Below are positions 2,076 through 62,085 of a stretch of DNA of 64,000 nucleotides, in pieces. The notes under the pieces were generated by a model, which was not told the origin of the DNA, did not search any database, and was given only the letters and a program-made list of their open reading frames with translations. A program made the position numbers and the translations under genes. Within the stretch, counting starts at the first letter, position 1, and every line of letters starts with the position of its first letter. This DNA is from Chloroflexota bacterium. Its GTDB lineage: Bacteria; Chloroflexota; UBA11872; VXOZ01. The stretch is from the NCBI GenBank assembly GCA_965216245.1, contig OZ244145.1, forward strand, positions 2,572,097 through 2,636,096. The letters are read 5' to 3'.

Positions 2076-3710
2076 CTACAAGTAATCCACGGGCTCTCTA
2101 TTGTGGCAGTTGGGGTAATCGTCGCGTTCGGGAGTGTCGATGACAGGAAACGCCGGGCCTTCGTTCATGCGCTCGAAGAAGGTGGCATCTGCTGAGGTAA
2201 CGTCGCACCAGAAGAAGCCCATGGCCTGGAAGGTAGCGTAGTTCGGGATGTGGCGCCACTGGAGCAGACCCGGGTCGAAAGCGAAGATACGGACGTCATC
2301 GTTGTCGAAGCGGCGGACGAGCATGTTGGGTTCTGGGGCGGTGTGGTCGAGGGGAATGGCGGAGACGACGTCAACGGGCACACTGTACTCGGTGTTGACG
2401 ATAGCCCAGGGGATTTGATAGACGTACAGGTCGTAGGGAGGTATCCAGCGGCGGACGATACAGTTGCCGCCTTCATGGCGGGCGATGTAGTAGGTTTGGC
2501 CGAGGGTTTGGTCGCGAATGATGCCGACGATGACGCGGGCGGAGGCGTCATGGGCGAACCAGCCGATACCGAATTCGATGGTGGTGCCTGGGATGTCGAG
2601 GCGTTCGAGCCAGAGGAGGTCGCCTGGGAGTTCGTAGGCCATGGCGGCGGCGGTGTTGCCGACGAGGTTTTTGACGGTAGAGCCGTCCGGAGGACGTGGA
2701 GCGCAGCCGTCAGCGGAGCGGGAGCCGCCGCCGCCACCACCTCCACCACCGCCACCGCCGCCACCACCACCGCCCCCGCCGGCGTTAGGTGCGGTACCGG
2801 GAACTTTGTCGGGATTCTGCGGCGGATCGTTATTGTCCTGCGGCGGATCGTTATTGTCCTGTGGCGGGTTGTTATTGTCCGGTGGCGGATTGTTGTCGTC
2901 CGGTGGCGGATTGTTGTCATCGGGCGGCGGATTGTTGCTAGTGTCCGGTGGATCACCACCTCTGACTTTTATGTTGAACAAAGAGACGGGCCCCATCACC
3001 CTTTTTAGTCTCTTCTTCACTTCGTAGGCAATACCTATGCTTACGTTGCCTACAGCGTCTGGATCCAACGTGACCGTAACGGAGTTTCCATGATACTCGT
3101 CCCACCAAACTTCGCCTTCGTCCTCGCAGTCATTGTCGTTGTTCTTATCGCCAGTCACGATGTGATGGTTGGTTTCGCTTAATAGAACATAGCCCAGGGA
3201 TGTCCCAGAGGAGTGGACAAGCAAGCTGTCGCCACATTCGACGCCACTCAAGCTCGTTGGGTCACCCGTAAAGCCTAGGGTGAACGACTGGCTCACTCCT
3301 GGGGAGACTGACAAATAGGCTTGATCGATAGTGTTGTATTCGAAGTCGCTAGAGGTCACGGTCAAGGTGAAGTTACCACTGCCCAGCGTGCTCCCCGCGC
3401 TGGCTGCCATGATGGCGACCAGCAGCGCGCCGGCGGGGATGATGCGCCACTTGATGCCTGTGAGCCAGTTCCACAGAATGGCCAGCAGAGTCTGCGGTAG
3501 CCTCTTCGCCGGGACGTTCGGCAGCTTGATCCGTGCCAGCCAGCAGAATAGGATTACGAGATAAGCGAGCAGGAGTAGTCCAGCAAGGGCGACTCCCCGC
3601 CTGCCGTCTGCTAACCAGTTCAGCGGAGTAACTGTCATCTTGCCTGATTTCATGGAAATTGCTTCCTCCGGTAATCTCTCTTGATCGGGGCTTCGGGAGA
3701 GCGAGTTCAA
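2076..3710 (-). CDS. Membrane-anchored repeat-linker protein, copy 1 (544 aa). Layout: TM/signal region, divergent beta-rich middle domain, PPDDNN repeats, polyGly(19), conserved uncharacterised C-terminal domain.
   Basis: Long ORF. Hydrophobic segments near the N-terminus. Coding tandem repeats. The last ~230 aa are near-identical to copy 2. Confidence 0.8.
   Translation of the reverse strand: MNSLSRSPDQERLPEEAISMKSGKMTVTPLNWLADGRRGVALAGLLLLAYLVILFCWLARIKLPNVPAKRLPQTLLAILWNWLTGIKWRIIPAGALLVAIMAASAGSTLGSGNFTLTVTSSDFEYNTIDQAYLSVSPGVSQSFTLGFTGDPTSLSGVECGDSLLVHSSGTSLGYVLLSETNHHIVTGDKNNDNDCEDEGEVWWDEYHGNSVTVTLDPDAVGNVSIGIAYEVKKRLKRVMGPVSLFNIKVRGGDPPDTSNNPPPDDNNPPPDDNNPPPDNNNPPQDNNDPPQDNNDPPQNPDKVPGTAPNAGGGGGGGGGGGGGGGGGGGSRSADGCAPRPPDGSTVKNLVGNTAAAMAYELPGDLLWLERLDIPGTTIEFGIGWFAHDASARVIVGIIRDQTLGQTYYIARHEGGNCIVRRWIPPYDLYVYQIPWAIVNTEYSVPVDVVSAIPLDHTAPEPNMLVRRFDNDDVRIFAFDPGLLQWRHIPNYATFQAMGFFWCDVTSADATFFERMNEGPAFPVIDTPERDDYPNCHNREPVDYL
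2724..2945. repeat. In-frame coding simple repeats in copy 1: a (GGN)n polyGly run at 2724-2783 and 18/21-bp PPDDNN-type tandem units at 2808-2945.
   Basis: Plus strand shows gccgccgccaccacc... and then reiterated cggcggatcgttattgtcctg units. Confidence 0.85.
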
Positions 3711-4355
3711 AGGGGTTTGGCGCCCATTACTGAGCGAAGTATTCTTGGATTGACAGAAGATACTAGAAGGACCTGGGGTAGATTGCCTGATACAGAGTCA
3801 ATAGGAATTCGCTCAGATTTACGATCGGGAATACCCTAGGAAATGAGATATGAGTAGCATGTTGGACATGAGGGAGACAAAAGCGTTTGGGGGTTGACAA
3901 GATAGGGGAAAAGTTAAGCGCAGATTCGGTTAGATATGCCGGGAATGCTTAAACTTCAATCTTTAAGCAAGGAAAACGGTAGCTAGATGGCGAAACTAGG
4001 GGGAAAGCACTTGGAGTGTTTTTCATTTTAACATAAGGGCAGTGGATATGGCAAGAGATGGGCTACCTCGGCATTGAGGGGGTTTGGCTTGACGGTTATT
4101 GAAAGCAGCGAATTCCGTGGTGGCGTAGGCAAACCTTAGGTGCGACCTTGCCGATATTCCTGCTTTCACGCTCTTTTGCTCTCTTCCCTCGTATCCCGCG
4201 ATGTCAGAGGAACGCAGTCTTCCCCTAGACCGTGCAGAAGCAGCAAATCTTCGCTGCGACCGCAGCGGCGCTTGGTGTTGGCAGGGCACGAGCCCATGGG
4301 CTCGTGCCTTCGTTAGCATTGCACGTGAAATGTATTGGCGTCGGAGGGGTCTCGG

Positions 4356-6026
<1,671 letters not shown>

Positions 6027-6592: not shown

Positions 6593-7351
6593 TTAGAGCA
6601 AGCCCGCGGTGAGCCCGCCGTCGATGTGGATGACTTGACCGGTGATATAAGAGGCCACGTCACTCGTGAGGTACGAGACGAGCGCGGCGATCTCCTCCGG
6701 TCTGCCAGCGCGTTTGATGGGCAGCTTCTGCATCAGGCGGTCCATCAGGTGCGGGGGGATGTCATGGGTGAGATCGGTTGGGATGTACCCCGGCGCAATC
6801 GCATTGACCGTAATGCCTCTGCTGCCCATTTCCACGGCAGTGGAACGGGTGAATGCGACCACACCGGCCTTAGCGGCGGTGTAGTTGGCTTGGCCGGGAT
6901 TCCCCACCATCCAGCCGACCGAGGTTATGTTTATGATGCGCCCCCAGCGCTGCGCCAGCATAGGCCGCAGGGCGGCACGGGTGCAAAGGAAGGCGCCGCG
7001 CAGGTTGGTGTCTACGACAAGGTCCCAGTCGTCTTCGCTCATTTTGAGGACGAGGGTATCTTTGGTGATGCCGGCGTTATTCACCAAAACGTGGATGCTG
7101 CCGAACCGCTCCAGCGTGCGGTCGAAAACGGTTTTGACCGCGTCTGCGTCCCGCACGTCGCCGCTAACCGCCAAAGCACTGCCGCCGTCATTCTGGATTT
7201 GTGCTACGGCTTCGAGCGCGGCCTCCTCGTTTACCTGGTAGTTAATCGCTACGTTTGCGCCGGACGCAGCGAGATTGAGCGCAATCGTGCGCCCGATTCC
7301 GCGCGAGGCGCCGGTCACGAGTGCTGTCTTGCCAGAGAGGTGTTGTGCCAT
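6593..7351 (-). CDS. SDR-family 3-oxoacyl-ACP reductase (FabG-like)
   Basis: TALVTGASRGIGR glycine motif. NNAG and YxxxK (NYTAAK) are present. ATG at 7351 gives MAQHLSGK with an upstream GGAG. Confidence 0.85.
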   Translation of the reverse strand: MAQHLSGKTALVTGASRGIGRTIALNLAASGANVAINYQVNEEAALEAVAQIQNDGGSALAVSGDVRDADAVKTVFDRTLERFGSIHVLVNNAGITKDTLVLKMSEDDWDLVVDTNLRGAFLCTRAALRPMLAQRWGRIINITSVGWMVGNPGQANYTAAKAGVVAFTRSTAVEMGSRGITVNAIAPGYIPTDLTHDIPPHLMDRLMQKLPIKRAGRPEEIAALVSYLTSDVASYITGQVIHIDGGLTAGLL

Positions 7352-17439: not shown

Positions 17440-17556
17440 GGAGAAGAGGGCAGTCACGAGGACTGTGCCTACAGCGGGAAGAAGAGGGCAGTCACGAGGA
17501 CTGCCCCTACGGCGGAGAGAAGAGGGCAGGCACGAGGATAGTCCCTACGGCGATTT
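17440..17556. repeat. Tandem repeat, 38-bp unit x3, upstream of leuC. Each unit has the hairpin CAGTCACGAGGACTG.
   Basis: GAAGAGGGCAGTCACGAGGACTG... recurs at 17443, 17481 and 17519. Confidence 0.8.
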
Positions 17557-21897: not shown

Positions 21898-22749
21898 CTA
21901 CTCGGCGTCTTCGTCGCGGCCTAACTCCATGGCATCGATTAGGCGCGTGGCGCCGATGCGGACGGCGAGTGACGCGAGTGCCGGACCCTCGATAGCAGCC
22001 AATTCCTCCAGACTTTCGTCGTCGGCGATGCTCACGTAGTCCACGTGCGCCAGCGGTTCGCCCGCGAGCACCGCTTGCATGGCGGCGCGGAGAGCGTTGG
22101 CGTCGCGTTCTCCGTCAGCGAAACGCTCTGCCGCTGCTTGCAATGACCGATAAACGACTATTGCCGCTGCACGCTCATCCGTATTCAAGTGGACGTTGCG
22201 GCTTGCCTGGGCGAGACCGTCGGGTTCGCGCACCGTATCCACCGGCACGATCATGGTGGGAATGTCGAGGTCGCGCACCATGCGTTGGATGACGCGGAGT
22301 TGCTGGGCGTCTTTGCGGCCGAAGTAGGCCCGTTGCGGCTTCACGATGTTGAGCAGCTTGCAGACAACCGTTGTGACGCCGCGGAAGTGTCCGGGCCGCG
22401 CTGCCCCCTCCAAGCGATTAGTAAGGCTCTCTACGTGTACGAAGGTGCTGAAGTCGTCCGCATACATCGCGCCAGCTTCCGGTACGAAGACGGCATCCAC
22501 GCCCCATTCTTCGAACATGGCAAGGTCGCGCGACAGGTCGCGGGGGTAGGTAGCGAGGTCCTTGTTAGACCCAAACTGCAAGGGATTGACGAATATCGTG
22601 GCCCAGCAGTAATCATTTTCCGCAAGGGCGGCTTGTACCAGCGCCATGTGGCCCGCGTGCAGGTACCCCATGGTGGGCACCAGCCCAAGGCTGCCTTGGA
22701 CTTCTTGCCGAGCGGCGCGAACTGCTGGGATGGTGTGCAGAATCTGCAT
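21898..22749 (-). CDS. panC: Pantoate--beta-alanine ligase
   Basis: HxGH motif LHAGH. MQILHTIPAV start at 22749. Confidence 0.9.
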   Translation of the reverse strand: MQILHTIPAVRAARQEVQGSLGLVPTMGYLHAGHMALVQAALAENDYCWATIFVNPLQFGSNKDLATYPRDLSRDLAMFEEWGVDAVFVPEAGAMYADDFSTFVHVESLTNRLEGAARPGHFRGVTTVVCKLLNIVKPQRAYFGRKDAQQLRVIQRMVRDLDIPTMIVPVDTVREPDGLAQASRNVHLNTDERAAAIVVYRSLQAAAERFADGERDANALRAAMQAVLAGEPLAHVDYVSIADDESLEELAAIEGPALASLAVRIGATRLIDAMELGRDEDAE

Positions 22750-22810
22750 GCGAAAGTGTTTGGCGGTTACCTGGCGGCGTGTCACGCCTTTATTCTCGTA
22801 CATAGCGCGT

Positions 22811-23040
22811 CTTTTCACCCTGCGACAGGCTCAGGGCGAACGGGATCTAGTTCTCGTGCGCAGCGGGCCTTTTCACCCTGCGACAGGCTCAGGGCGAACG
22901 GGGTTCAATTCTCGTGTGCAGCGCGCCTTTTCACCCTTCGGCAGGCTCAGGGCGAACGGGACTCTAGTTCTCGTGTGCAGCGCCTTTTCACCCTGCGACA
23001 GGCACAGGGCGAACGGGATTCTATTCTCGCGCGAATAGGT
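22811..23040. repeat. Tandem array of 4 x ~58-bp units between panB and panC. Each unit holds the family-3 hairpin core TTCACCCTGCGACAGGCTCAGGGCGAACGG.
   Basis: Unit starts at 22811, 22869, 22927 and 22984. Confidence 0.9.
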
Positions 23041-23063: not shown

Positions 23064-23936
23064 TTAGCCTTCGTCAGAGGTCGGGACCAGTGTCTCTTTA
23101 CGCAAGGCGCGGGCAACTTCGTTAGGGAGCGCAAAGCTGTTTGCGCGGGTAGGAAACGTGCCGGCTTCAACGTCTTGAACATATGCATTCACGGCAGCCT
23201 GCATCTCGTCACCCAACGAAGCGTATGCCTTCGCGTGTCGCGGATGTTCGGGGCGTGGGTTGAGCCCGAGCAGATCATGCAGGACTTGTATCTGCCCGTC
23301 GCAATGCACACCTGCGCCGATGCCGATGGTGGGGATGGTCAACGATTTGGTGACCTGTTGCGCGAGCGTCGCCGGAATGCTCTCCAGGACGATAGCAAAC
23401 GCGCCTGCGCGCTCGAGGGCGAGGGCCTCGTGTTGAAGTTCTTCTGCTTCCGCTAGTGTGCGTCCTTGGGCGCGGTAGCCGCCCAATTGGTGGACCGACT
23501 GCGGCGTAAGCCCCAGGTGACCCATCACCGGAATACCGGCGGCCACCAAATCTGCCGTTACCGCAATAGTCTGCTTGCCGCCTTCCAGCTTCACCGCCTG
23601 CGCGCCGCCCTCTTGGACCAGTTTGCCGGCATTGAGGAGCGCCCGTTCGTTGGAAACCTGATACGAGAGGAAAGGCATATCGGCGATAATCAGGGCGCGG
23701 CGTGTGCCGCGCACCACGGCCTGGGTGTGGCGCAAGATATCGTCTACGGTGACCGGCAGGGTATTCTCGTAGCCCAGCACCGTATTGCCCACGCTGTCGC
23801 CAACCAGAATTGCAGGCACGCCGCCCGCTTCTACAAAGTGCGCCAGCGGTGCGTCATACGCCGTGAGCATCACAATCTTGCGCCCTTCCGCCTTCATCTG
23901 CTTGAGATCGGCGGCGGTCACGCGCGCGGTGCGCAT
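23064..23936 (-). CDS. panB: 3-methyl-2-oxobutanoate hydroxymethyltransferase
   Basis: KIVMLTAYD and GDSVGNTVLGY motifs. Confidence 0.92.
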   Translation of the reverse strand: MRTARVTAADLKQMKAEGRKIVMLTAYDAPLAHFVEAGGVPAILVGDSVGNTVLGYENTLPVTVDDILRHTQAVVRGTRRALIIADMPFLSYQVSNERALLNAGKLVQEGGAQAVKLEGGKQTIAVTADLVAAGIPVMGHLGLTPQSVHQLGGYRAQGRTLAEAEELQHEALALERAGAFAIVLESIPATLAQQVTKSLTIPTIGIGAGVHCDGQIQVLHDLLGLNPRPEHPRHAKAYASLGDEMQAAVNAYVQDVEAGTFPTRANSFALPNEVARALRKETLVPTSDEG

Positions 23937-36263: not shown

Positions 36264-36414
36264 AGGAGAGCTTGCAATTACATTGATAATGCTGATGGTT
36301 TCACAGCGGCGTTATAGAACACTATCGTCCACTGGCGCGTGACTGTGCTCGGAGGGCTTCTGTATCCTCTAGGGAAGAGCGTTGCGAGCGATGCTCGTCA
36401 AGAGCCGTTCGTGC

Positions 36415-36609: not shown

Positions 36610-37167
36610 ATGCAGGTCACGAAGCACGTCATTGAACGCGTATTACTAAACACCGTGCTCGTAGTTGCAATCCTTTCCGTGCTGGGCTGCGGCCCGCCTG
36701 GGACGGCACCGCGCGAGGGTGCGGCGACGCCATCCGCGCCGGTAGAAGGGACGCCTCTTGCCTATGAAGCGGTGCTCTGCATCAACGAGGCGCGCATCAA
36801 CGTGCTGGTCGCCGATACGCCACAGGAACGGGCCGCGGGCCTGAGCGGATACCCCGGACTACCGGAGAACGTCGGAATGCTGTTCGTATTCCCGGAGCCG
36901 CGGCAGCCGTCATTCTGGATGAAGGGGATGGAGTTTTCGCTCGACCTCGTCTGGATACGCGAAGGGATTGTGGTGCAAATCGATACCGCGGTCCCGCCCC
37001 CGCCCCCAAATACGCCGGACGACCAACTCCCGCGCTACCACCCGACCGAACCGGTCACGCACGTGCTGGAACTAGAGGCCGGCTCAGCAGCGCGCTACGG
37101 CATCACCTTCGGCGATCATATAGTTATCTGCCCAGATAAGACACCTTCCGCAGACACCGATGGCTGA
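36610..37167 (+). CDS. DUF192-domain lipoprotein
   Basis: Lipobox LSVLGCG. DUF192-like core: NVLVADTPQERAAGL and GMLFVFP. Confidence 0.65.
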   Translation: MQVTKHVIERVLLNTVLVVAILSVLGCGPPGTAPREGAATPSAPVEGTPLAYEAVLCINEARINVLVADTPQERAAGLSGYPGLPENVGMLFVFPEPRQPSFWMKGMEFSLDLVWIREGIVVQIDTAVPPPPPNTPDDQLPRYHPTEPVTHVLELEAGSAARYGITFGDHIVICPDKTPSADTDG

Positions 37168-37326
37168 GGAGGTATTGGGAGACATGTCCCAAGCTCGGAA
37201 CCTGGAAGAGGGAGAAGTCAACCAAAACACTTGCTACAAGAAAAGGTTGGCGCTGGTTGCATACCTGCGATACGGGAAGGCAACAAGCAAGCTTAGAGTC
37301 TTCAAGCTAAAGTCTTCAAAGAGTGT

Positions 37327-38772
37327 CTAGTCCGGAGGGTTCGCCGGTATTAGGTTACCGTCCTCATCCGCTCGCACTAGGGTGCGCAAGTCCGTGCCGT
37401 CACGGGCAACGGTGTAGAGTTGCGGGGGAATGTTGCCGTAGGGGTTCCCTGGAACGTAGAGCGCGATACGGGCGCCGTCCGGCGACCACGCTCCTACGCG
37501 CCATGCTTGGTCAAGGGGATTCTCAAGCTCCACGCGGCGCGCGTTGCTGCCGTCACGCTCGACGATGAAATAGTGACTATCGGAGGCTATCAGCAGCTCC
37601 GACCCGTCCGGCGACCACAACACTTGAGAAACTTGCCACTCCGCGCCCTGCGATTCCAGCACCTGAGTTAGATCGGTGCCATCGGGACGCACCGTGTAGA
37701 CGCCGACGGGCGCTCCCTCCTCATCGGCCATCACGAAGGCCAGAACGTCCCCGTCCGGCGACCACGAAGGCAAGACCGGCACCCAGTATGACTGTCCCGA
37801 CCCGGTCGCAAGCGGTTCCAGAAACGGTACATTGCCAACAACCGGTCCGACTACCCGCGTCCACTCCGCCCCGTCGGCCCGAATCGTGTAAAGAAGAACC
37901 TCCTGATAAGCCGCCAGAAATGCCAAATGCTCCCCGTCTGGCGACCACAGTTGCGGGGCCACCACAATGGCGACGTAGTAGGTTTTCTCCCTTAGCGTAG
38001 GTGTCGGTATCGCTTCTCCCTGATCTACCTCGGATCCATCCGCCACTATGGCATAGAAAAAGGTACTTTCCTTCCTAGTCGCAGGTGTCGTAATTTCTTT
38101 CTCCTGCCGTACATCGGGCTCGTCCGCTGCCATCGTAATGATCTCCCCATTCTGCCAACTCCTGATACGAGTAGCTGACCAGAAGGAGATGCGCTTTCCA
38201 TCAGGCGCCCAGACCGGATAGTGATCAAAGATGTCGTTTCGTGTAAGCCGCAGTTTCTCGGTGCCATCCAGGTTGATGACGGCGATCTCATAGCCGAAGT
38301 AGTTCTCCCGTGCTGGATCTACGTTCGGACCTTCCGGTCGAAACTCGCATGACGTATACACCACCCGCGTGCCGTCTGGCGATACATCAAAGTAGAAGCC
38401 GTACGGAAAATTGTACCGTGGTTCGCGCTTCTCTATGGGATATCTGGGATCCGCGTCCACGACCGTGCGCAAACTGGTCCCTTCCAGATCGACCACCTGT
38501 ATCATCCCGAGATAATCGAATATGAGATGCGTGCCGTCCGGCGTCCAATGAATGACCTGCTCGAAATAATAACCGCCCTGGCCTTCAAACATCGGACCAC
38601 AAGGGCCGTCTGAATGTCTAATAATACTAACATTCCCTTTCTCAACCTTTTCGGTGTTTGAATCTTCCAAAGTCTGAACGGTGTTTGTCTCACAGCCGGC
38701 AAGACCGGCGGCCAACGCCAATATGAGCAACCCCAGCAACAACGTCTGAATTCGATGCAATGGTATGCGCAC
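37327..38772 (-). CDS. TolB-like PD40 beta-propeller lipoprotein
   Basis: Lipobox LAAGLAGC. At least six W(S/A)PDG PD40 repeats. Confidence 0.8.
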   Translation of the reverse strand: MRIPLHRIQTLLLGLLILALAAGLAGCETNTVQTLEDSNTEKVEKGNVSIIRHSDGPCGPMFEGQGGYYFEQVIHWTPDGTHLIFDYLGMIQVVDLEGTSLRTVVDADPRYPIEKREPRYNFPYGFYFDVSPDGTRVVYTSCEFRPEGPNVDPARENYFGYEIAVINLDGTEKLRLTRNDIFDHYPVWAPDGKRISFWSATRIRSWQNGEIITMAADEPDVRQEKEITTPATRKESTFFYAIVADGSEVDQGEAIPTPTLREKTYYVAIVVAPQLWSPDGEHLAFLAAYQEVLLYTIRADGAEWTRVVGPVVGNVPFLEPLATGSGQSYWVPVLPSWSPDGDVLAFVMADEEGAPVGVYTVRPDGTDLTQVLESQGAEWQVSQVLWSPDGSELLIASDSHYFIVERDGSNARRVELENPLDQAWRVGAWSPDGARIALYVPGNPYGNIPPQLYTVARDGTDLRTLVRADEDGNLIPANPPD

Positions 38773-39139
38773 TGTTAAACTCCTCAGCTCCTGGGTCTGA
38801 TAGATCGCGATGTTCTCGACAATGTCTACGATCGCGCTGTGCTGTCGGGCTGCCTAGATGTTGACAAAACAAGCCAGCAATTGCAAGCGAAGAGTAGAGA
38901 CCAGTTGCGAATGTAAGGGATGCGAGTTACCAAAGTCTAGGCAGTTTGGGGTTGCTGTCTTACAGGCCGGGCGCAGGATGCAGCCTTAGCTGCATAATTG
39001 GGAGCCAGTATTCGTTTTCCGTAATAGGTGTAGTGGGGCTCAATAGGAAGACCTCAGCGCTATTTGCCGCGTCGCTCGAACAACCCATGAAGCGTTCAGG
39101 TTGCGGTATGAATCTCGCTGTAGCGCTGCGCGTGTCATC

Positions 39140-39765
39140 CTACTCTAAGGACAGGGCACCCTTCGAGAGCACGTCCTTCACGCCGGCCTGGTGATTGGCG
39201 AGGCGGGCGAGGGTGAAGAGCAGGTCGGAGAGGCGGTTGAGGTAGATCAGAATTGGTTTGGAGAGTGGCTCTTCTTGCGCAAGGGCAACCGCAATGCGTT
39301 CGGTACGGCGGCAGACGGCGCGGGCGAGGTGGAGCGCGGCGGCGGCGGGCGTGCCGCCGGGGAGGACAAAATCCGTGAGGGGAGCGAGTTCTGAGTCTGC
39401 CGCGTCGATGGCTGCCTCTAGCGTCGCGGCGTGTTCGGGCGTGATGCGTGGAATGGTATAGGCCCGTGGCTCGTGCGGCGTGGCTACGTCCGCGCCCATG
39501 ATGAAGAGTTCGCTTTGGATACGCTGGACTAGGGCCGCGAGGGCGGATGCGTCATTCTGAGTGGGAGAGCCCGTGCTGCTTCTTGCAGGATCGCCGGCTG
39601 CATTTGCCGTCTCTTCATCGCGCAGGTGGACGACTGCCATGCCCAGAGTAGCGCTCAGCTCGTCGATGGTGCCGATGAGTTCCATGCGGAGGGCGTGTTT
39701 TGAAACCCGCTCGCCGCCAAAGAGCGACGTGGTGCCGTCGTCACCGCCGCCGGTGTAGATGGGCA
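39140..39765 (-). CDS. PduO-type ATP:cob(I)alamin adenosyltransferase
   Basis: MPIYTGGGDDGTTSL start. The longer ORF to 40033 is a repeat-derived artefact. Confidence 0.85.
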
Positions 39766-39827
39766 TGAGGTTCTGTGTCCTCCCGAATTGAAGAATGCTG
39801 ATTTTCAAGGGTTGATGGGAGCGGTTT

Positions 39828-39871
39828 TCCCGTTCGTACTGAGCTTGACGAAGGGTCGAAGTACGAACGGG
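39828..39871. repeat. Family-3 hairpin with a perfect 12-bp stem CCCGTTCGTACT/AGTACGAACGGG
   Basis: Direct reading. Confidence 0.85.
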
Positions 39872-39939
39872 AAACAGACGTGCGGAATGTTGAAAAAGGC
39901 ATTCCAGCGCGGTTGGCCGTTCAACAGGTGATGGCAAAC

Positions 39940-40503
39940 GGCGGTGCTTTGCAGGGACCTTGCTCCTACGCTGTTCACCCTTCGGCAGGCTCAGGGCGAA
40001 CGGCTTGCAACCTGCCAAGGCCCTTTCTTGCACCGCTCGCCCTTCGGCTAGGCTCAGGGGGAACGGCGGTGCTTTGCAGGGACCTTGCTCCCAAACTGTT
40101 CACCCTTCGACAGGCTCAGGGCGAACGGCTTGCATTCTGTCAAGGCCCTTTCTTGCACCGCTCGCCTTTCGGCTAGGCTCAGGGGGAACGGCAGTGCTTT
40201 GCAGAGAGCTTGCTCCTACGCTGTTCACCCTTCGACAGGCTCAGGGCGAACGGTTTGCAACCTGCCAAGGCCCTTTCTTGCACCGCTCGCCTTTCGGCTA
40301 GGCTTAGGGGGAACGGCAGTGCTTTGCAGAGAGCTTGCTCCTACGCTGTTCACCCTTCGACAGGCTCAGGGCGAACGGCTTGCATTCTGCCAAGGCCCTT
40401 TCTTGCACCGCTCGCCCTTCGGCTAGGCTCAGGGGGAACGGCAGTGCTTTGCAGGGAGCTTGCTCCTGCGCTGTCCACCCTTCGACAGGCTCAGGGCGAA
40501 CGG
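39940..40503. repeat. Tandem array of 4.5 x 125-bp units. Each unit holds two family-3 cores plus a GCTTGCAACCTGCC motif.
   Basis: Unit starts at 39940, 40065, 40190, 40315 and 40440. Units are more than 90% identical. Confidence 0.9.
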
Positions 40504-40587: not shown

Positions 40588-41505
40588 TTACTCCGATGCT
40601 GCCGTGCGCAGCATGTCGCGCATGCGATGCACCAGGGTCAGTCCCTCGTCCCACGGCCGTTGGAAGCAATTGCGTCCGAAGATGAAACCAGTAGCGCCTG
40701 ACTGCACAGCGAGGCGGGCCTTCTCCAAGGCTTCCTCGTCGCTGGCGCGCTCGCTGCCTGAGACCAGTACCAGGGTTCTGCCCGCCGACTGCACCGCCTT
40801 GGCGAGCGCCTCGTCGGGCGTGACGTTCATGGTGTTGTAAGGCGCGGGCGAGAGCTTGTCCTTCTCAGGATCGATCTTGGGCACGTTGATCTTTACCACG
40901 TCGGCTCCAAGTTCGCAGGCTACGCGCGCGGCGTAATCAATGGCGTAGAAGCTGTCGCGGCCGCCTTTGGCCTCCATGTGCTTGCCGCGGGGGTACGCCC
41001 ACATGATCGTCGGCATGCCGAAGCGGTCGGCGTCCTGACGCACCTGCCGCCACTGGACGAAGTCCTCATCCTGGCGCGACGATCCCATGTAAAGCGTGTA
41101 GCCAATCGCATCGGCACCCAGGCGCACGGCGTCCTCGACTGTGGCATTGAGCGGATTAAGGGGGGCGTCATCGGGCGGGATGTTGGTCTTGCCGTTGAGT
41201 TTCACCACCAGCGGCATCCGGCCGGCGTATGGGCGCATGTACTTTAGGGCAGTGCCATATTGCAGGGCTACTCCCGAAAAGCCGCCCTCCAGCGCCAGCC
41301 GCCAGATGTAGTCGGGGTCAAGGGCAGCGGGATTGTCGAAGAAGTCCGCCGGGCCATGCTCCATGCCGTGGTCTACCGGCAGGAGCATCATGGTGCCATT
41401 GCCGGGACCGTAGCCGTAGAGCAAGCGTTGCAAGCGCACGTACTTCCCCGGACTTAGCTCTAGATCGTCTAGCGTGATCCGACGGTTTTTCATAACACTC
41501 GCCAT
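40588..41505 (-). CDS. Class I fructose-bisphosphate aldolase (DhnA/FbaB type)
   Basis: LLPVDHGMEHGP start. VKIN Schiff-base lysine region. Confidence 0.85.
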   Translation of the reverse strand: MASVMKNRRITLDDLELSPGKYVRLQRLLYGYGPGNGTMMLLPVDHGMEHGPADFFDNPAALDPDYIWRLALEGGFSGVALQYGTALKYMRPYAGRMPLVVKLNGKTNIPPDDAPLNPLNATVEDAVRLGADAIGYTLYMGSSRQDEDFVQWRQVRQDADRFGMPTIMWAYPRGKHMEAKGGRDSFYAIDYAARVACELGADVVKINVPKIDPEKDKLSPAPYNTMNVTPDEALAKAVQSAGRTLVLVSGSERASDEEALEKARLAVQSGATGFIFGRNCFQRPWDEGLTLVHRMRDMLRTAASE

Positions 41506-41712: not shown

Positions 41713-42133
41713 TCATGCGCCTAGCAACGGCTGGTGTTTCAAGCGATGATACCGCAAAGCGAGTGAGACACAGTGCTTCAGAGCGTCCACCGGTAGCTCG
41801 TCGGTTTCGCAAAATACAATGGCCCTGTTCCCCTCGAACGTAAAAAAGCCCCTGTAGAGTGACTTGAACGTTTCAACCAACGAAGTGTTGCAGTTGAAGT
41901 ACAGCGCGTACTGGTGCGGCGACTTCTGCTTCCAGTCCATTCTGATCGTGCTACCGCCTTTGGTGAGGTAGCTCGGCTCTCCCCACTTTAGGGTTTCTTC
42001 CACGGCAGCAACGCCCTCTGTATTCTGCTGCCGCTTCGAAGACGATCCGCCTCAGCCGCAGCATCTTCTTGCGCATAGGCTCCGGGTAACTGTCGAATAC
42101 TTGCGCCACATTAGGGTTCTCGATACTGTCCAT
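41713..42133 (-). pseudogene. DUF1801-family protein, split by a frameshift near 42005-42020
   Basis: N-terminal part MDSIENPNVAQVFDSYPEPMRKKMLRLRRIVFEAAAE is in one frame. The continuation TEGVAAVEETLKWGEPSY... is in the adjacent frame. Confidence 0.5.
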
Positions 42134-42240
42134 GCCCGACGCCGCTGTCCTCTTTCGCATCCTGCAAACCGCTTTCACTCATGTGGAGTGAGAACTAAGA
42201 AGCCGTACCCTCCGGCTATGAAGGAATACCCGTCACAGCC

Positions 42241-42370
42241 TCTTAGAGGGTGAGTGAAAAGAGTATCCTCCTTCATCCTTCGACAGGCTCAGGACGAACG
42301 GATACTGCCTTTTCTGGCGGATGTTTGTTTCTTCCGTTCGTGGTGAGCCTGTCGAACCATGAGCGGCGAT
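42241..42370. repeat. Composite ~130-bp element with two family-3 hairpins. An inverted copy lies at 61950-62085.
   Basis: The reverse complement of 62025-62085 nearly equals 42241-42301. The reverse complement of 61953-61987 matches 42335-42367. Confidence 0.85.
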
Positions 42371-42393
42371 TGGCTGAGAACTTCTCACACACC

Positions 42394-43248
42394 CTAGTAG
42401 AGAGTTGTGTGTTGCTTCACTGCTGCTTCCAACTGCGCCAGAGACTCCGGGGGCACGTTAATAGCGCCTAGTTCCGCTTGGGATAGGATGCCGCCGCCGT
42501 GAAAGTCGCTGCCGCCGGTGGGAATCAAGTCTAATCGCTCTGCGATGCCTAGAATTTCCGCCTGTTGATCCGCCGTGTAGCCGGTGTAGTAGGTTTCGAT
42601 GGCGTCGAGGCCGGCCTTTGCAAGCTCGGGCACGAGTATGTCCAGGTCCACTTGATCTGCGCCTTCCACGTTGTACGGGTGCGCAAGCCCGGCCGCGGCC
42701 CCGGCCCGGTGCAGCAAGGCTACGGCTTCATCGGGCGCGAGCTTTGGCTGGTCCACGTAGGCCGGCATGCCGTGTCCGAGGAATTTGTCAAAGGCTTCGT
42801 TCGAGTTGACCACGTAGCCTTGGGCGATCATGGCCTTGGCAATGTGGGGGCGTCCCACCGCGCCGCCGTCTGCGCGCTGCAGGATGCCTTCCCAGTCAAG
42901 CGGCATGTTGAGCGCGGCCAGCTTCTCTACCATCCGCTGTGCGCGATAGAGGCGGCCGTCCCGCTGCCGCGCAATTACCGCCTGCAGCTCCGGGTGCTCC
43001 GTGTCCACGAAATAGCCCAGGATATGCACGGATTGGCCGTGCCACATAGTGTTGAACTCGATGCCGGCGATCACGCGTACGCCGCATTCCTGACCGGCCT
43101 CCTGCGCAGCGGCGACGCCGTCGGTGCTGTCATGGTCGGTAATGGCGATGCAGTCAAGCCCCGCCTCATGCGCCATCCGCACGAGATCGGCCGGAGCAAA
43201 CGCGCCGTCTGAGGCCGTGGTGTGCAGATGTAGATCAATGCCGGGCAT
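42394..43248 (-). CDS. PHP-domain phosphoesterase
   Basis: IDLHLHTTASDG start and PHP His motifs. Confidence 0.85.
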   Translation of the reverse strand: MPGIDLHLHTTASDGAFAPADLVRMAHEAGLDCIAITDHDSTDGVAAAQEAGQECGVRVIAGIEFNTMWHGQSVHILGYFVDTEHPELQAVIARQRDGRLYRAQRMVEKLAALNMPLDWEGILQRADGGAVGRPHIAKAMIAQGYVVNSNEAFDKFLGHGMPAYVDQPKLAPDEAVALLHRAGAAAGLAHPYNVEGADQVDLDILVPELAKAGLDAIETYYTGYTADQQAEILGIAERLDLIPTGGSDFHGGGILSQAELGAINVPPESLAQLEAAVKQHTTLY

Positions 43249-45625: not shown

Positions 45626-46890
45626 TGTATAGACCGGGGACATAGGTAACACATGTTCGGGGACATAGGTTACACCATAAGGCATGGAGAATCTTTTAGA
45701 TGGAGGAGGACCATGCCTTGGAAAGTGGGTACACCCATGTCTTTGCGCAAAGAGTTTATTGCTCTGGCACAATCTGACGGAGTGAACATGAGCGAGTTGT
45801 GTCGTCGCATGGAAATCAGCCGCAAGACCGGCTACAAGTGGCTGCGGCGGTACGCGCAGGCCGGAGGGCAGAGCCTTCACGATCTGCCCAGGCGCCCGCA
45901 CTCCAGTCCGCAACAGACGAGCCGGGAGATGGAGGAGCTTGTCGTAGCGTTGCGCCTGACGCATCCCACCAAGGGTGCGCATGTGCTGGCCAGGATGTTG
46001 CAGGATCGCGGCTGTGCGGGGGTGCCTGCCAAGAGCACGATCACTGCCATTCTCAGACGACATGGGCTCATCGATGAATCCGAGGCTGCCAAGCACACAC
46101 CCTATGTGCGCTTTGAACGTGCCGAACCCAACGAGCTGTGGCAGATGGACTTCAAGGGACACATTGCCGTGCAACACCACCGCTGCCATCCGTTCACCCT
46201 CCTGGACGATCACTCTCGCTTCAACCTGGCGCTGCGGGCCTGTGCCAACGAGCAGGGAAACACGGTCCAAGACCGCCTCACCCACGTCTTTCGGCGTTAC
46301 GGCTTGCCTCAGGCCATGCTGATGGACAACGGCTCCCCCTGGGGTAGCGACAGCGCTCATCCCTTTACTCCCCTCACCGTCTGGCTCATGCAACTGGGCA
46401 TCAGCGTGCACCACAGCAGACCGTACCATCCCCAAACACTCGGCAAACTGGAACGCTTCCACCGCTCACTGAAGAGCGAGTTGCTTACAGGCCGCACCTT
46501 CACCGACCTCCCCCACTGCCAACGTGCCTTCGACACCTGGCGTGACTTCTACAACTTGGAGCGCCCACACTATGCCCTGGACCTCGACACCCCGGTCAGC
46601 CGATACACGCCCAGTGGTAGACCTTTCCCCGAGGCCCTGCCCACCATCGACTACGCCCCCGACGACCACGTGCGTTCTGTGGATGTCTCCGGTCGCATCT
46701 CATTCCAGGGCAGACCACTGCGTGTGGGAAAAGCCTTCACGCATAAGCGGGTCGCGCTCAGACCCACCCAAACCGACGGCGTATGGGACGTCTATTTCTC
46801 CGTCCAACGCATAAAAACCCTAGACCTCAATGAACAAAATGTGTAACCTATGTCCCCGAACAACTGTTACCTATCTCCCCAGTCTGTACA
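45626..46890 (+). mobile_element. IS481-family insertion sequence, 1265 bp. Imperfect ~28-bp terminal IRs begin with TGT and contain nested sub-repeats. Flanked by a 5-bp direct repeat CTCCC.
   Basis: Left end TGTATAGACCGGGGACATAGGTAACACA matches the reverse complement of the right end TGTACAGACTGGGGAGATAGGTAACAGT. The inner 22-bp IR TGTTCGGGGACATAGGTTACAC is perfect. CTCCC lies at 45621-45625 and 46891-46895. Confidence 0.85.
45713..46846 (+). CDS. IS481-family DDE transposase
   Basis: N-terminal HTH (MSELCRRMEISRKTGYKWLRRY). rve core with ELWQMDF, the D..LLDDHSRF region and the LERFHRSLK E region. Confidence 0.9.
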   Translation: MPWKVGTPMSLRKEFIALAQSDGVNMSELCRRMEISRKTGYKWLRRYAQAGGQSLHDLPRRPHSSPQQTSREMEELVVALRLTHPTKGAHVLARMLQDRGCAGVPAKSTITAILRRHGLIDESEAAKHTPYVRFERAEPNELWQMDFKGHIAVQHHRCHPFTLLDDHSRFNLALRACANEQGNTVQDRLTHVFRRYGLPQAMLMDNGSPWGSDSAHPFTPLTVWLMQLGISVHHSRPYHPQTLGKLERFHRSLKSELLTGRTFTDLPHCQRAFDTWRDFYNLERPHYALDLDTPVSRYTPSGRPFPEALPTIDYAPDDHVRSVDVSGRISFQGRPLRVGKAFTHKRVALRPTQTDGVWDVYFSVQRIKTLDLNEQNV

Positions 46891-51831: not shown

Positions 51832-51931
51832 TTCTATGTGATTCGGCGATGTTTATGCAAGGGAGCCTTCGATTCCCAGCGGCGCTCAAGCGAATCCTCG
51901 TTGCCTGAGGATCCGGTTAGGAATCCACAAC

Positions 51932-51987
51932 TGTTCGTACTGAGCCTGCCTGTCCTGAGCTTGACGAAGGGTCGAAGTATGAACGGC
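51932..51987. repeat. Family-3 hairpin (long variant CTGTTCGTACTGAGCC...GTCGAAGTATGAACGG)
   Basis: Direct reading. Confidence 0.8.
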
Positions 51988-52068
51988 GCATAGCGTGCGA
52001 TCTAGCCGGAGTTCAGGGCATTGGTGGCGGGACAATCATGGCTTCGGCGGCACCGACCGAGACCGCTG

Positions 52069-61834: not shown

Positions 61835-61949
61835 GGGAGTGCCCTTTCGCTGCAGTGGTACGTGGTTCTTTTCGCTGTGTAGTGAGAGCGTCGCTGTGAA
61901 GAGCAGAATCGCATGATCCCACTAAGAGTTGTGTGGGAAGTTCTCAGCC

Positions 61950-62085
61950 AAGCGCCGTTCATGGTTCGACAAGCTCACCACGAACGGCAAGAAAGAAAAA
62001 TCCCTCGGAAAAAGCCAGTATCCGTTCGTCCTGAGCCTGTCGAAGGATGAATGGATACTCTTTTCACACACCCTCTAAGGTACTA
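61950..62085. repeat. Inverted copy of the composite two-hairpin element at 42241-42370
   Basis: See 42241-42370. Confidence 0.85.

Follow-up and report, generated by a model that had tools for sequence, protein, structure and literature searches.

Between a gene for a class I aldolase and the gene for a PduO-type cob(I)yrinic acid a,c-diamide adenosyltransferase (pduO), the genome of a Chloroflexota bacterium (contig OZ244145.1) carries a tandem array of short hairpins, analysed here within a stretch of 64,000 nucleotides (hereafter the window). The array is non-coding and variable in copy number, was very probably built in place from two diverged hairpins (A and B) and two locus-specific linkers (l1 and l2), and most likely represents a by-product that is neutral or mildly selfish. 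An earlier interpretation made from the letters alone (the sequence-only reading) had described 4.5 units of 125 bp, more than 90% identical, with an alternation of two variants from a single hairpin family that expands by local tandem amplification, and this interpretation is supported in its essentials.

The array spans 567 bp on the minus strand (39937–40503), with a period of 125 bp, 4.5 copies, 93% matches, no indels and a score of 987 in Tandem Repeats Finder (TRF); a second, independent repeat finder placed the copies in register every 125 bp, and the pairwise identity of the four full units is 92.0–96.0%. Read along the gene strand (minus), each unit runs in the order hairpin A (33 nt), linker l1 (29 nt), hairpin B (34 nt) and linker l2 (29 nt), and the whole array has the formula (A-l1-B-l2) × 4 plus A-l1. 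Hairpins were located with R1, a covariance model built from 140 distinct hairpin copies from which the B copies of the array were excluded. Hairpin A of unit 1, closest to the aldolase gene, lies at 40471–40503 and is followed by copies at 40346–40378, 40221–40253, 40096–40128 and 39971–40003 (all minus strand), which score 44–53 bits, compared to 11 bits on the opposite strand. Its sequence is CCGTTCGCCCT[GAGCCTGTCGA]AGGGTGAACAG, where the bracketed part is the 11-nt loop, and its stem consists of 9–10 pairs, one of them G.U. The folding energy of hairpin A as RNA is −14.5 kcal/mol (z −3.3) for the gene strand and −12.1 kcal/mol (z −2.0) for its complement. Hairpin B (40408–40441, minus strand; other copies at 40283–40316, 40158–40191 and 40033–40066) has the sequence CCGTTCCCCCT[GAGCCTAGCCGA]ARGGCGAGCGG, a diverged copy whose loop (GAGCCTAGCCGA) has 12 nt and whose stem contains a C.C mismatch. 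It scores 18–32 bits, though no B copy went into building R1, and is a recognisable diverged member of the hairpin family. The proposed alternation of two variants holds. The 25-nt consensus CCTTCGRCWGGCTCAGGGSGAACGG has 13 matches in the window at ≤3 mismatches (0 expected), five of them in the array and all five in A copies; the claim that each unit holds two copies of the core fits A, while B (CCTTCGGCTAGGCTCAGGGGGAACGG) has one extra base and can be aligned to it only with an indel.

Linker l1 (CGYAGGAGCAAGSTCYCTGCAAAGCACYG) occupies 40442–40470, 40317–40345, 40192–40220, 40067–40095 and 39942–39970, and linker l2 (TGCAAGAAAGGGCCTTGRCAGRWTGCAAR) occupies 40379–40407, 40254–40282, 40129–40157 and 40004–40032, all on the minus strand. 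On the plus strand, l2 holds the small motif GCTTGCAACCTGCC that had been reported from each unit; one unit has it exactly and the remaining three with 1–3 mismatches, and outside the array it is near chance (17 matches at ≤3 mismatches in the window, 9.6 expected). AAT and GTT variants of l2 alternate along the array to give a 250-bp super-period, and the l1 linkers are of two types, ‘internal’ and ‘terminal’. Together, the alternating l2 variants and the two l1 types indicate that array growth took more than one step.

Relatives were drawn from a protein-guided scan with one genome per species, which yielded 12 Chloroflexota metagenome-assembled genomes with aldolase identities of 89–97%. 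The order of the aldolase gene and pduO is kept in all 12, with a spacer that, including the window (821 bp), measures 38, 219, 293, 337, 369, 401, 424, 471, 475, 519, 666, 696 and 821 bp. The three closest of these relatives form, with the window, a series in which the flanks are conserved and the number of units differs, as a comparison proposed in the sequence-only reading was to address: L002 has a single hairpin A (~0.3 unit), L001 has A-l1-B-l2-A*-l1 (1.5 units), L003 has B'-l2-A-l1-B-l2-A-l1-B-l2-B-l2-A (about 3 units; 2.8 × 124 bp or, alternatively, 6.4 × 63 bp by TRF) and the window has 4.5. By blastn-short, linker l1 was found only in the window array and the orthologous spacers of L001 and L003, and neither l1 nor l2 occurs elsewhere in the ~1.8 Mb of compared sequence. 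This confinement to the aldolase-pduO locus indicates that duplication was local and copied the linkers along with the hairpins. The conserved part of the spacer among relatives is the 110 bp beside the pduO ATG, not the array, and a spacer ranging over 38–821 bp suggests that the array is tolerated rather than required, as expected of a by-product rather than a dedicated regulator.

The same hairpin has given rise to different arrays. At the aldolase-pduO spacer, TRF identified 45 bp × 4.7 in L011 and 68 bp × 2.2 in L006, and within the window a second array of 58 bp × 4.2 with one hairpin per unit (22793–23033, minus strand; R1 30–41 bits) sits between panB (23064–23936) and panC (21898–22818). 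There, with both flanking genes identified by Pfam, the hairpin sense strand is again the gene strand, and the array falsely lengthens the panC open reading frame (ORF) by about 24 codons. TRF over all compared loci detected hairpin-containing tandem arrays only in the window, L003 and L011, with L006 detected in the run on the spacer, and none was detected among the listed matches in 133 metagenome and viral loci. All four independent arrays of the Chloroflexota clade are co-oriented with their operons. Local tandem amplification of the hairpin family, which had been put forward from the two arrays in the window, is well supported by the unit series in relatives and by the independent 45-bp and 68-bp arrays.

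The array is non-coding. ORFs of 113–163 aa occur in several plus-strand frames, and the minus strand has others of 121 and 297 aa, as the sequence-only reading had noted in calling them spurious, and no array ORF has a Pfam match. A period of 125 bp is not divisible by 3, so that each successive unit is read in a different frame and a stop falls about every 375 bp in each frame; this rotation, the presence of ORFs on both strands and in several frames, the lack of Pfam matches and the 124-bp unit in L003 are the grounds for the non-coding assignment. The ORF of pduO (39140–39766, minus strand, 208 aa) runs upstream to 40033 in the ORF list, and this 89-codon extension into the array (39767–40033) is spurious, as had been proposed: it has no Pfam match, the product matches PF01923 over residues 3–189 (E = 4.9e-56) and TIGR00636 at 175 bits (cut-off 108), and in 12 of 12 orthologues the alignment begins at residue 1 of the shorter protein. 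The ATG at 39766 is the true start, one position from the 39765 given previously. Nor is the array immediately upstream of this start, as had been stated, for the array ends 171 bp from the ATG and a separate member of the hairpin family lies between them (39826–39874, plus strand; inverted-repeat finder, R1 34 bits). That hairpin, 60–108 nt upstream of the ATG and kept in L001–L003, has a perfect 15-bp stem and a loop enlarged to 19 nt by a partial loop duplication, and folds at −27.9 kcal/mol (z about −6). On the other side of the array, the gene named fba in the sequence-only reading (40588–41505, minus strand) encodes a DeoC/LacD-family class I aldolase (PF01791, E = 8.7e-39); among NCBIfam models it scores best with class I fructose-bisphosphate aldolase, where its 213 bits fall short of the cut-off of 277.

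Beyond the array, the hairpin has the 33-nt consensus CCGTTCG-NNN-T[GAGCYTGTCGA]A-N'N'N'-YGAACGG, with an 11-bp stem and an 11-nt loop, and is a real, structure-constrained element. Covariation was assessed on 140 distinct sequences, selected blind to the 3' arm, against 500 shuffles. Paired stem cells amounted to 82% compared to 72% in shuffled sequences (0/500 shuffles reached the observed value), compensatory double-sided stem cells numbered 168 with 62 expected, and pairing dropped to 32–47% when the partner columns were slid by 1–3 positions. Four stem classes dominate at positions 8–10 (TGG/CCA, CCC/GGG, TGC/GCA and TCC/GGA). At stem position 7, 120 of 185 copies have G.T and 58 have G:C, and as a consequence of the G.T pair one strand folds 2–5 kcal/mol better than the other (canonical hairpin, −16.5 kcal/mol sense and −11.6 kcal/mol antisense). 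The stem is prolonged by ≥4 pairs into non-conserved complementary flanks in 17% of copies (about 2% expected), and no conserved flanks were detected around the 185 copies, which have the termini CCGTTCG / YGAACGG. The R1 census of the window returned 22 sense-strand copies, 13 of them within the two arrays and all outside Pfam-supported genes, with scores of about 50 bits on the sense strand and 11–17 bits on the antisense. Doublets in the wider family are inverted hairpins 0–50 nt apart, and outside the Chloroflexota clade such inverted doublets make up 47 of 56 adjacent hairpin pairs. The family is a dispersed, intergenic palindromic repeat that resembles the repetitive extragenic palindromes (REPs).

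An exact-pattern scan found the hairpin in at least 120 metagenome contigs from soil, sediment, sludge, freshwater and groundwater and in 13 IMG/VR contigs, with a GC content of 41–70% among the metagenome and IMG/VR contigs listed, and in no INPHARED phage record, which lends no support to a phage origin. It also occurs in plasmids or chromids of Comamonas, Polaromonas, Moraxella osloensis, Methylobacter, Methylotuvimicrobium, Sphingobium, Sphingomonas and Novosphingobium, where no feature is annotated at the site, except once under ‘hypothetical protein’. These metagenome contigs and the matches in plasmids of Alpha-, Beta- and Gammaproteobacteria indicate that the hairpin core is shared, with hardly any change, across phyla rather than clade-specific. 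It was absent from all 68 aldolase loci of more distant organisms. In an all-versus-all blastp of 2,139 ORFs from the 133 hairpin-bearing loci listed, no protein family was tied to the hairpin. Rfam had no matches at gathering thresholds across the window and nothing at E ≤ 10 over the array, the canonical doublet gave chance-level miRNA matches only, and a tRNA/tmRNA scan found none. Possible resemblances to integron attC sites, group II intron domain V, hammerhead-like cores and the tRNA T-arm were dropped, since their sequences do not seem to fit. In the searchable literature, the loop sequence and the peptide strings that arise from the hairpin (SLSKGE, SLSKDE, SLSNHE and FDKLRANG) match only chance primers, and the hairpin appears to be undescribed. 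On plasmid p3 of Moraxella osloensis (L215, 4000–4075), a hairpin doublet between a histidine kinase gene and narL is followed by TTTTTTATTT, with the result that the antisense hairpin copy resembles an intrinsic terminator in this organism.

Two further forms of the hairpin were found. The window contains an element of about 150 bp (42245–42398) in which two inverted hairpins (42269–42301, minus strand; 42334–42366, plus strand) are enclosed by terminal inverted repeats (AGGGTGWGTGARAAG), with short direct repeats (CTAA/CTAG) on the flanks. It is inserted exactly at the stop codon of a PHP-domain gene, converting TAA to TAC TAG with the gain of one residue, and is missing from the orthologous site of L001, L002, L003, L005 and L074; a second copy, 88% identical and in the opposite orientation, lies at 61925–62080. 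With its terminal inverted repeats, flanking repeats and empty site in relatives, this element has the hallmarks of a miniature inverted-repeat transposable element (MITE). The other form is nested, with a duplicate of the core or of part of the loop placed within the loop, and is found at 39826–39874 and 51930–52010 in the window, at about 7130–7190 and about 10270 in L001, in the L006 spacer and at 3810–3930 in L214. Such forms turn up at sites unrelated to one another: the L001 orthologue of the window's hairpin at 36405 has a 23-nt loop insert, and others are those at the aldolase-pduO spacer of both L001 and L006 and on a Comamonas plasmid. Their recurrence suggests loop-directed insertion or a template-switch process, and template switching between near-identical loops would account for them. 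Separately, a metagenome contig (L094, 4541–5041) encodes a typical REP-associated tyrosine transposase (RAYT; HUH motif, WQSRFWDH, YIHYNPV) with GTAG-type REPs (GTAGGCCGGATAAGCG...) on its flanks, and a hairpin doublet lies 190 nt downstream, yet is not the RAYT's own repeat.

In the favoured explanation, near-identical hairpins in direct orientation, 62–63 bp apart, would provide the substrate, and replication slippage or unequal recombination most likely added and removed A-l1-B-l2 blocks, as the pattern of units suggests. If the aldolase gene and pduO are co-transcribed, the RNA would carry nine consecutive stem-loops, each with its better-folding strand on the gene strand, and by analogy with the REPs and bacterial interspersed mosaic elements (BIMEs) of E. 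coli these could shield the 3' end of the upstream mRNA and lower read-through into pduO; any effect of the array on expression is speculative. Several observations weigh against parts of this explanation. The fold of hairpin B is weak (−9.9 kcal/mol, z −0.9) and not significantly stable on either strand, and the fold of 250 nt of the array is not superior to that of shuffled sequence on either strand (z −1.2 and −1.0), with A's 5' arm paired to B's 3' arm in the minimum-free-energy fold, so that significant folding is confined to individual hairpins rather than the whole array. Family-wide, the hairpin sense strand matches that of the upstream gene in 26 cases and opposes it in 43 (p = 0.05), and without family-wide co-orientation a strand-specific role at the RNA level is not general. 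Co-transcription is assumed solely from gene order, slippage and unequal crossing-over are read from the repeat pattern, and the exact unit number depends on one assembly.

That the array is instead a dedicated cis-regulator of pduO or the aldolase gene (a promoter, an attenuator or an mRNA-stability element whose copy number tunes expression) is unlikely, despite an intercistronic site, a better-folding strand that is the gene strand in nine of nine hairpins and the like orientation of the panB-panC, L011 and L006 arrays. E. coli REP and BIME elements do stabilise upstream mRNA and attenuate transcription. Between 39650 and 40700, however, no sigma-70 promoter (−35/−10 hexamers, 16–18 nt spacing) was found, for which the Chloroflexota consensus may differ, and no intrinsic terminator (GC-rich hairpin then T-run; 1.1 expected in shuffles). 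The promoter or attenuator function suggested in the sequence-only reading therefore stays speculation; the spacer varies over its full range among close relatives with no conserved unit number, conservation falls on the 110 bp at the pduO ATG, outside the array, and orientation is uncoupled from transcription across the family. A REP/REPIN cluster spread by a RAYT, in which transposase-mediated insertion was repeated and nothing was duplicated in place, is a good deal less probable. It would account for the dominance of inverted doublets elsewhere (47 of 56 adjacent pairs), the empty sites of the window's 150-bp doublet in five relatives and the recurrence of hairpin-in-loop forms. It is opposed by the co-duplication of locus-restricted l1 and l2 with the hairpins, which indicates duplication in place, by the direct orientation of every array copy and by a hairpin that bears neither a GTAG nor a CGTC tag. 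Neither the window nor the loci of the 12 relatives yielded a RAYT, and a motif scan of 1.8 Mb gave a single one (L094), which has GTAG-type REPs of its own on its flanks; the terminal inverted repeats and CTAA/CTAG flanks of the mobile doublet better fit a DDE-type MITE.

Independent assemblies of relatives, in which the unit recurs at the corresponding position in 1.5 and about 3 copies, make it highly improbable that the copy number or the entire array is an artefact of assembling a repeat-rich metagenome-assembled genome. Tandem repeats of 92–96% identity do assemble poorly and this genome is represented by one assembly, but the diagnostic positions form an ordered mosaic (internal and terminal l1 types, alternating l2 types). 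Two other readings have next to no probability. A degenerate or false CRISPR array, with 33-nt palindromic repeats every 62–63 bp, would have a geometry in the CRISPR range (33–34-nt repeat, 29-nt spacer, nine repeats); the ‘spacers’, however, are just two alternating sequences, and since they repeat, the array is not a CRISPR array. The repeat is moreover dispersed as singletons and inverted doublets through the window and across phyla, and relatives differ by whole 125-bp units with no one-ended addition of new spacers. Equally negligible is a repeat protein or a genuine N-terminal extension of PduO, which the long ORFs on both strands might suggest and which the rotating frame, the absence of Pfam matches, the start of the PduO domain and its 12 orthologues at the ATG and the variation of relatives by 124- or 125-bp units all contradict.

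For the wider family, a more far-reaching reading may be offered tentatively and with considerable doubt. The hairpin may be an undescribed, structured cross-phylum repeat with a conserved, phylum-hopping partner that acts in trans and recognises the loop, in which case the arrays and nested forms would be footprints of that partner and not of passive slippage. The elements of this reading are the invariant loop, the four compensatory stem classes, the strand-specific G.T pair and the near-identity of the hairpin in Chloroflexota, in Alpha-, Beta- and Gammaproteobacteria and in many uncultured lineages of 41–70% GC. Candidates for the partner include a nuclease, a transposase and a protein that binds nucleic acids. 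Among REP-type repeats, which are normally lineage-specific, a 33-nt element whose loop is invariant across phyla is unusual, and it would point to a conserved partner. While the array itself is ordinary, the conservation of the hairpin across phyla is the more interesting lead.

For annotation, the hairpin arrays generate false genes and starts (89 additional codons for PduO, about 24 for PanC and several ORFs of 113–163 aa), and their geometry could be mistaken for a CRISPR locus and trigger CRISPR finders; masking of the hairpin is advised when annotating Chloroflexota metagenome-assembled genomes. The clean natural series of ~0.3, 1.5, 3 and 4.5 units, together with two independent arrays at the same spacer, would be suited to asking by what route hairpin repeats expand and whether expression inside an operon is uncoupled by them.

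Other repeats and variable features occur in the window. Non-coding tandem arrays of unrelated hairpin-like units lie at 334–543 (85 bp × 2.5) and 17442–17552 (38 bp × 2.9), and the genome seems rich overall in amplified palindromic repeats. Periods of 3, 9, 12, 18 and 21 bp at 2724–2936 and 5011–5207 (for example 21 bp × 5.6 and 18 bp × 5.3) fall in the minus-strand ORFs 2076–3710 and 4356–6026 and are probably real low-complexity coding repeats of paralogous proteins. On the 3' side of pduO, a segment with a gene for a 481-aa PD40/beta-propeller protein (37113–39139) has no nucleotide match in the corresponding part of L001 and L003, and would on this comparison be a variable segment. A 1.27-kb segment at 45626–46890, missing in L002 and L003, has inverted ends and a gene for a 397-aa transposase in which rve and LZ_Tnp_IS481 domains were identified; it is a lineage-specific IS481-family insertion beside argJ. 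The DUF1801 gene is seemingly split into overlapping ORFs in different frames (41713–42003 and 41951–42178), with an extra base near 42020 relative to the relatives, a possible frameshift, pseudogene or sequencing error.

Compared to known repeat systems, the array shares with CRISPR arrays its repeat length, period and palindromic repeat, and differs in its non-unique spacers, dispersed repeat and lack of polarised growth. The 150-bp doublets are like MITEs, such as the Correia elements, in their terminal inverted repeats, CTAA/CTAG flanks and empty orthologous site, while the 125-bp array has neither terminal inverted repeats nor a target-site duplication and grew in place. Like the REPIN/RAYT systems of Pseudomonas and E. 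coli, the wider hairpin family is intergenic, forms inverted doublets and shows presence/absence polymorphism between relatives; unlike them, the array is not a doublet, the hairpin has no GTAG or CGTC tag and no RAYT flanked by it was found in the 1.8 Mb scanned, and its core is shared across phyla whereas REPINs are usually species- or genus-specific. A terminal GTAG or CGTC tag marks most REP families (PMC3733652). Without such a tag, and with the only RAYT in 1.8 Mb having REPs of its own, the hairpin is not classifiable as a RAYT-type REP. The array also resembles the mycobacterial interspersed repetitive unit-variable number tandem repeat (MIRU-VNTR) loci of Mycobacterium tuberculosis, which are direct repeats of tens of bp between co-directional genes with a unit number that varies among close relatives, though many MIRU units are multiples of 3 with small ORFs coupled to flanking genes, compared to 125 bp here, and the array unit is made of hairpins from a dispersed palindromic family. 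From the BIME-2 clusters of E. coli, the array differs in its unrelated sequence, without a GTAG tag or a RAYT association found; its nine hairpins are all direct where successive REPs in BIMEs alternate in orientation, and the hairpin's invariant loop of 11 nt contrasts with the short, variable loops of REPs. The architecture is nonetheless closest to that of BIME-2, with which it shares short imperfect extragenic palindromes, two variants alternating with two conserved linkers, tandem amplification in variable number, often within operons, and hairpins in the transcript (here predicted).

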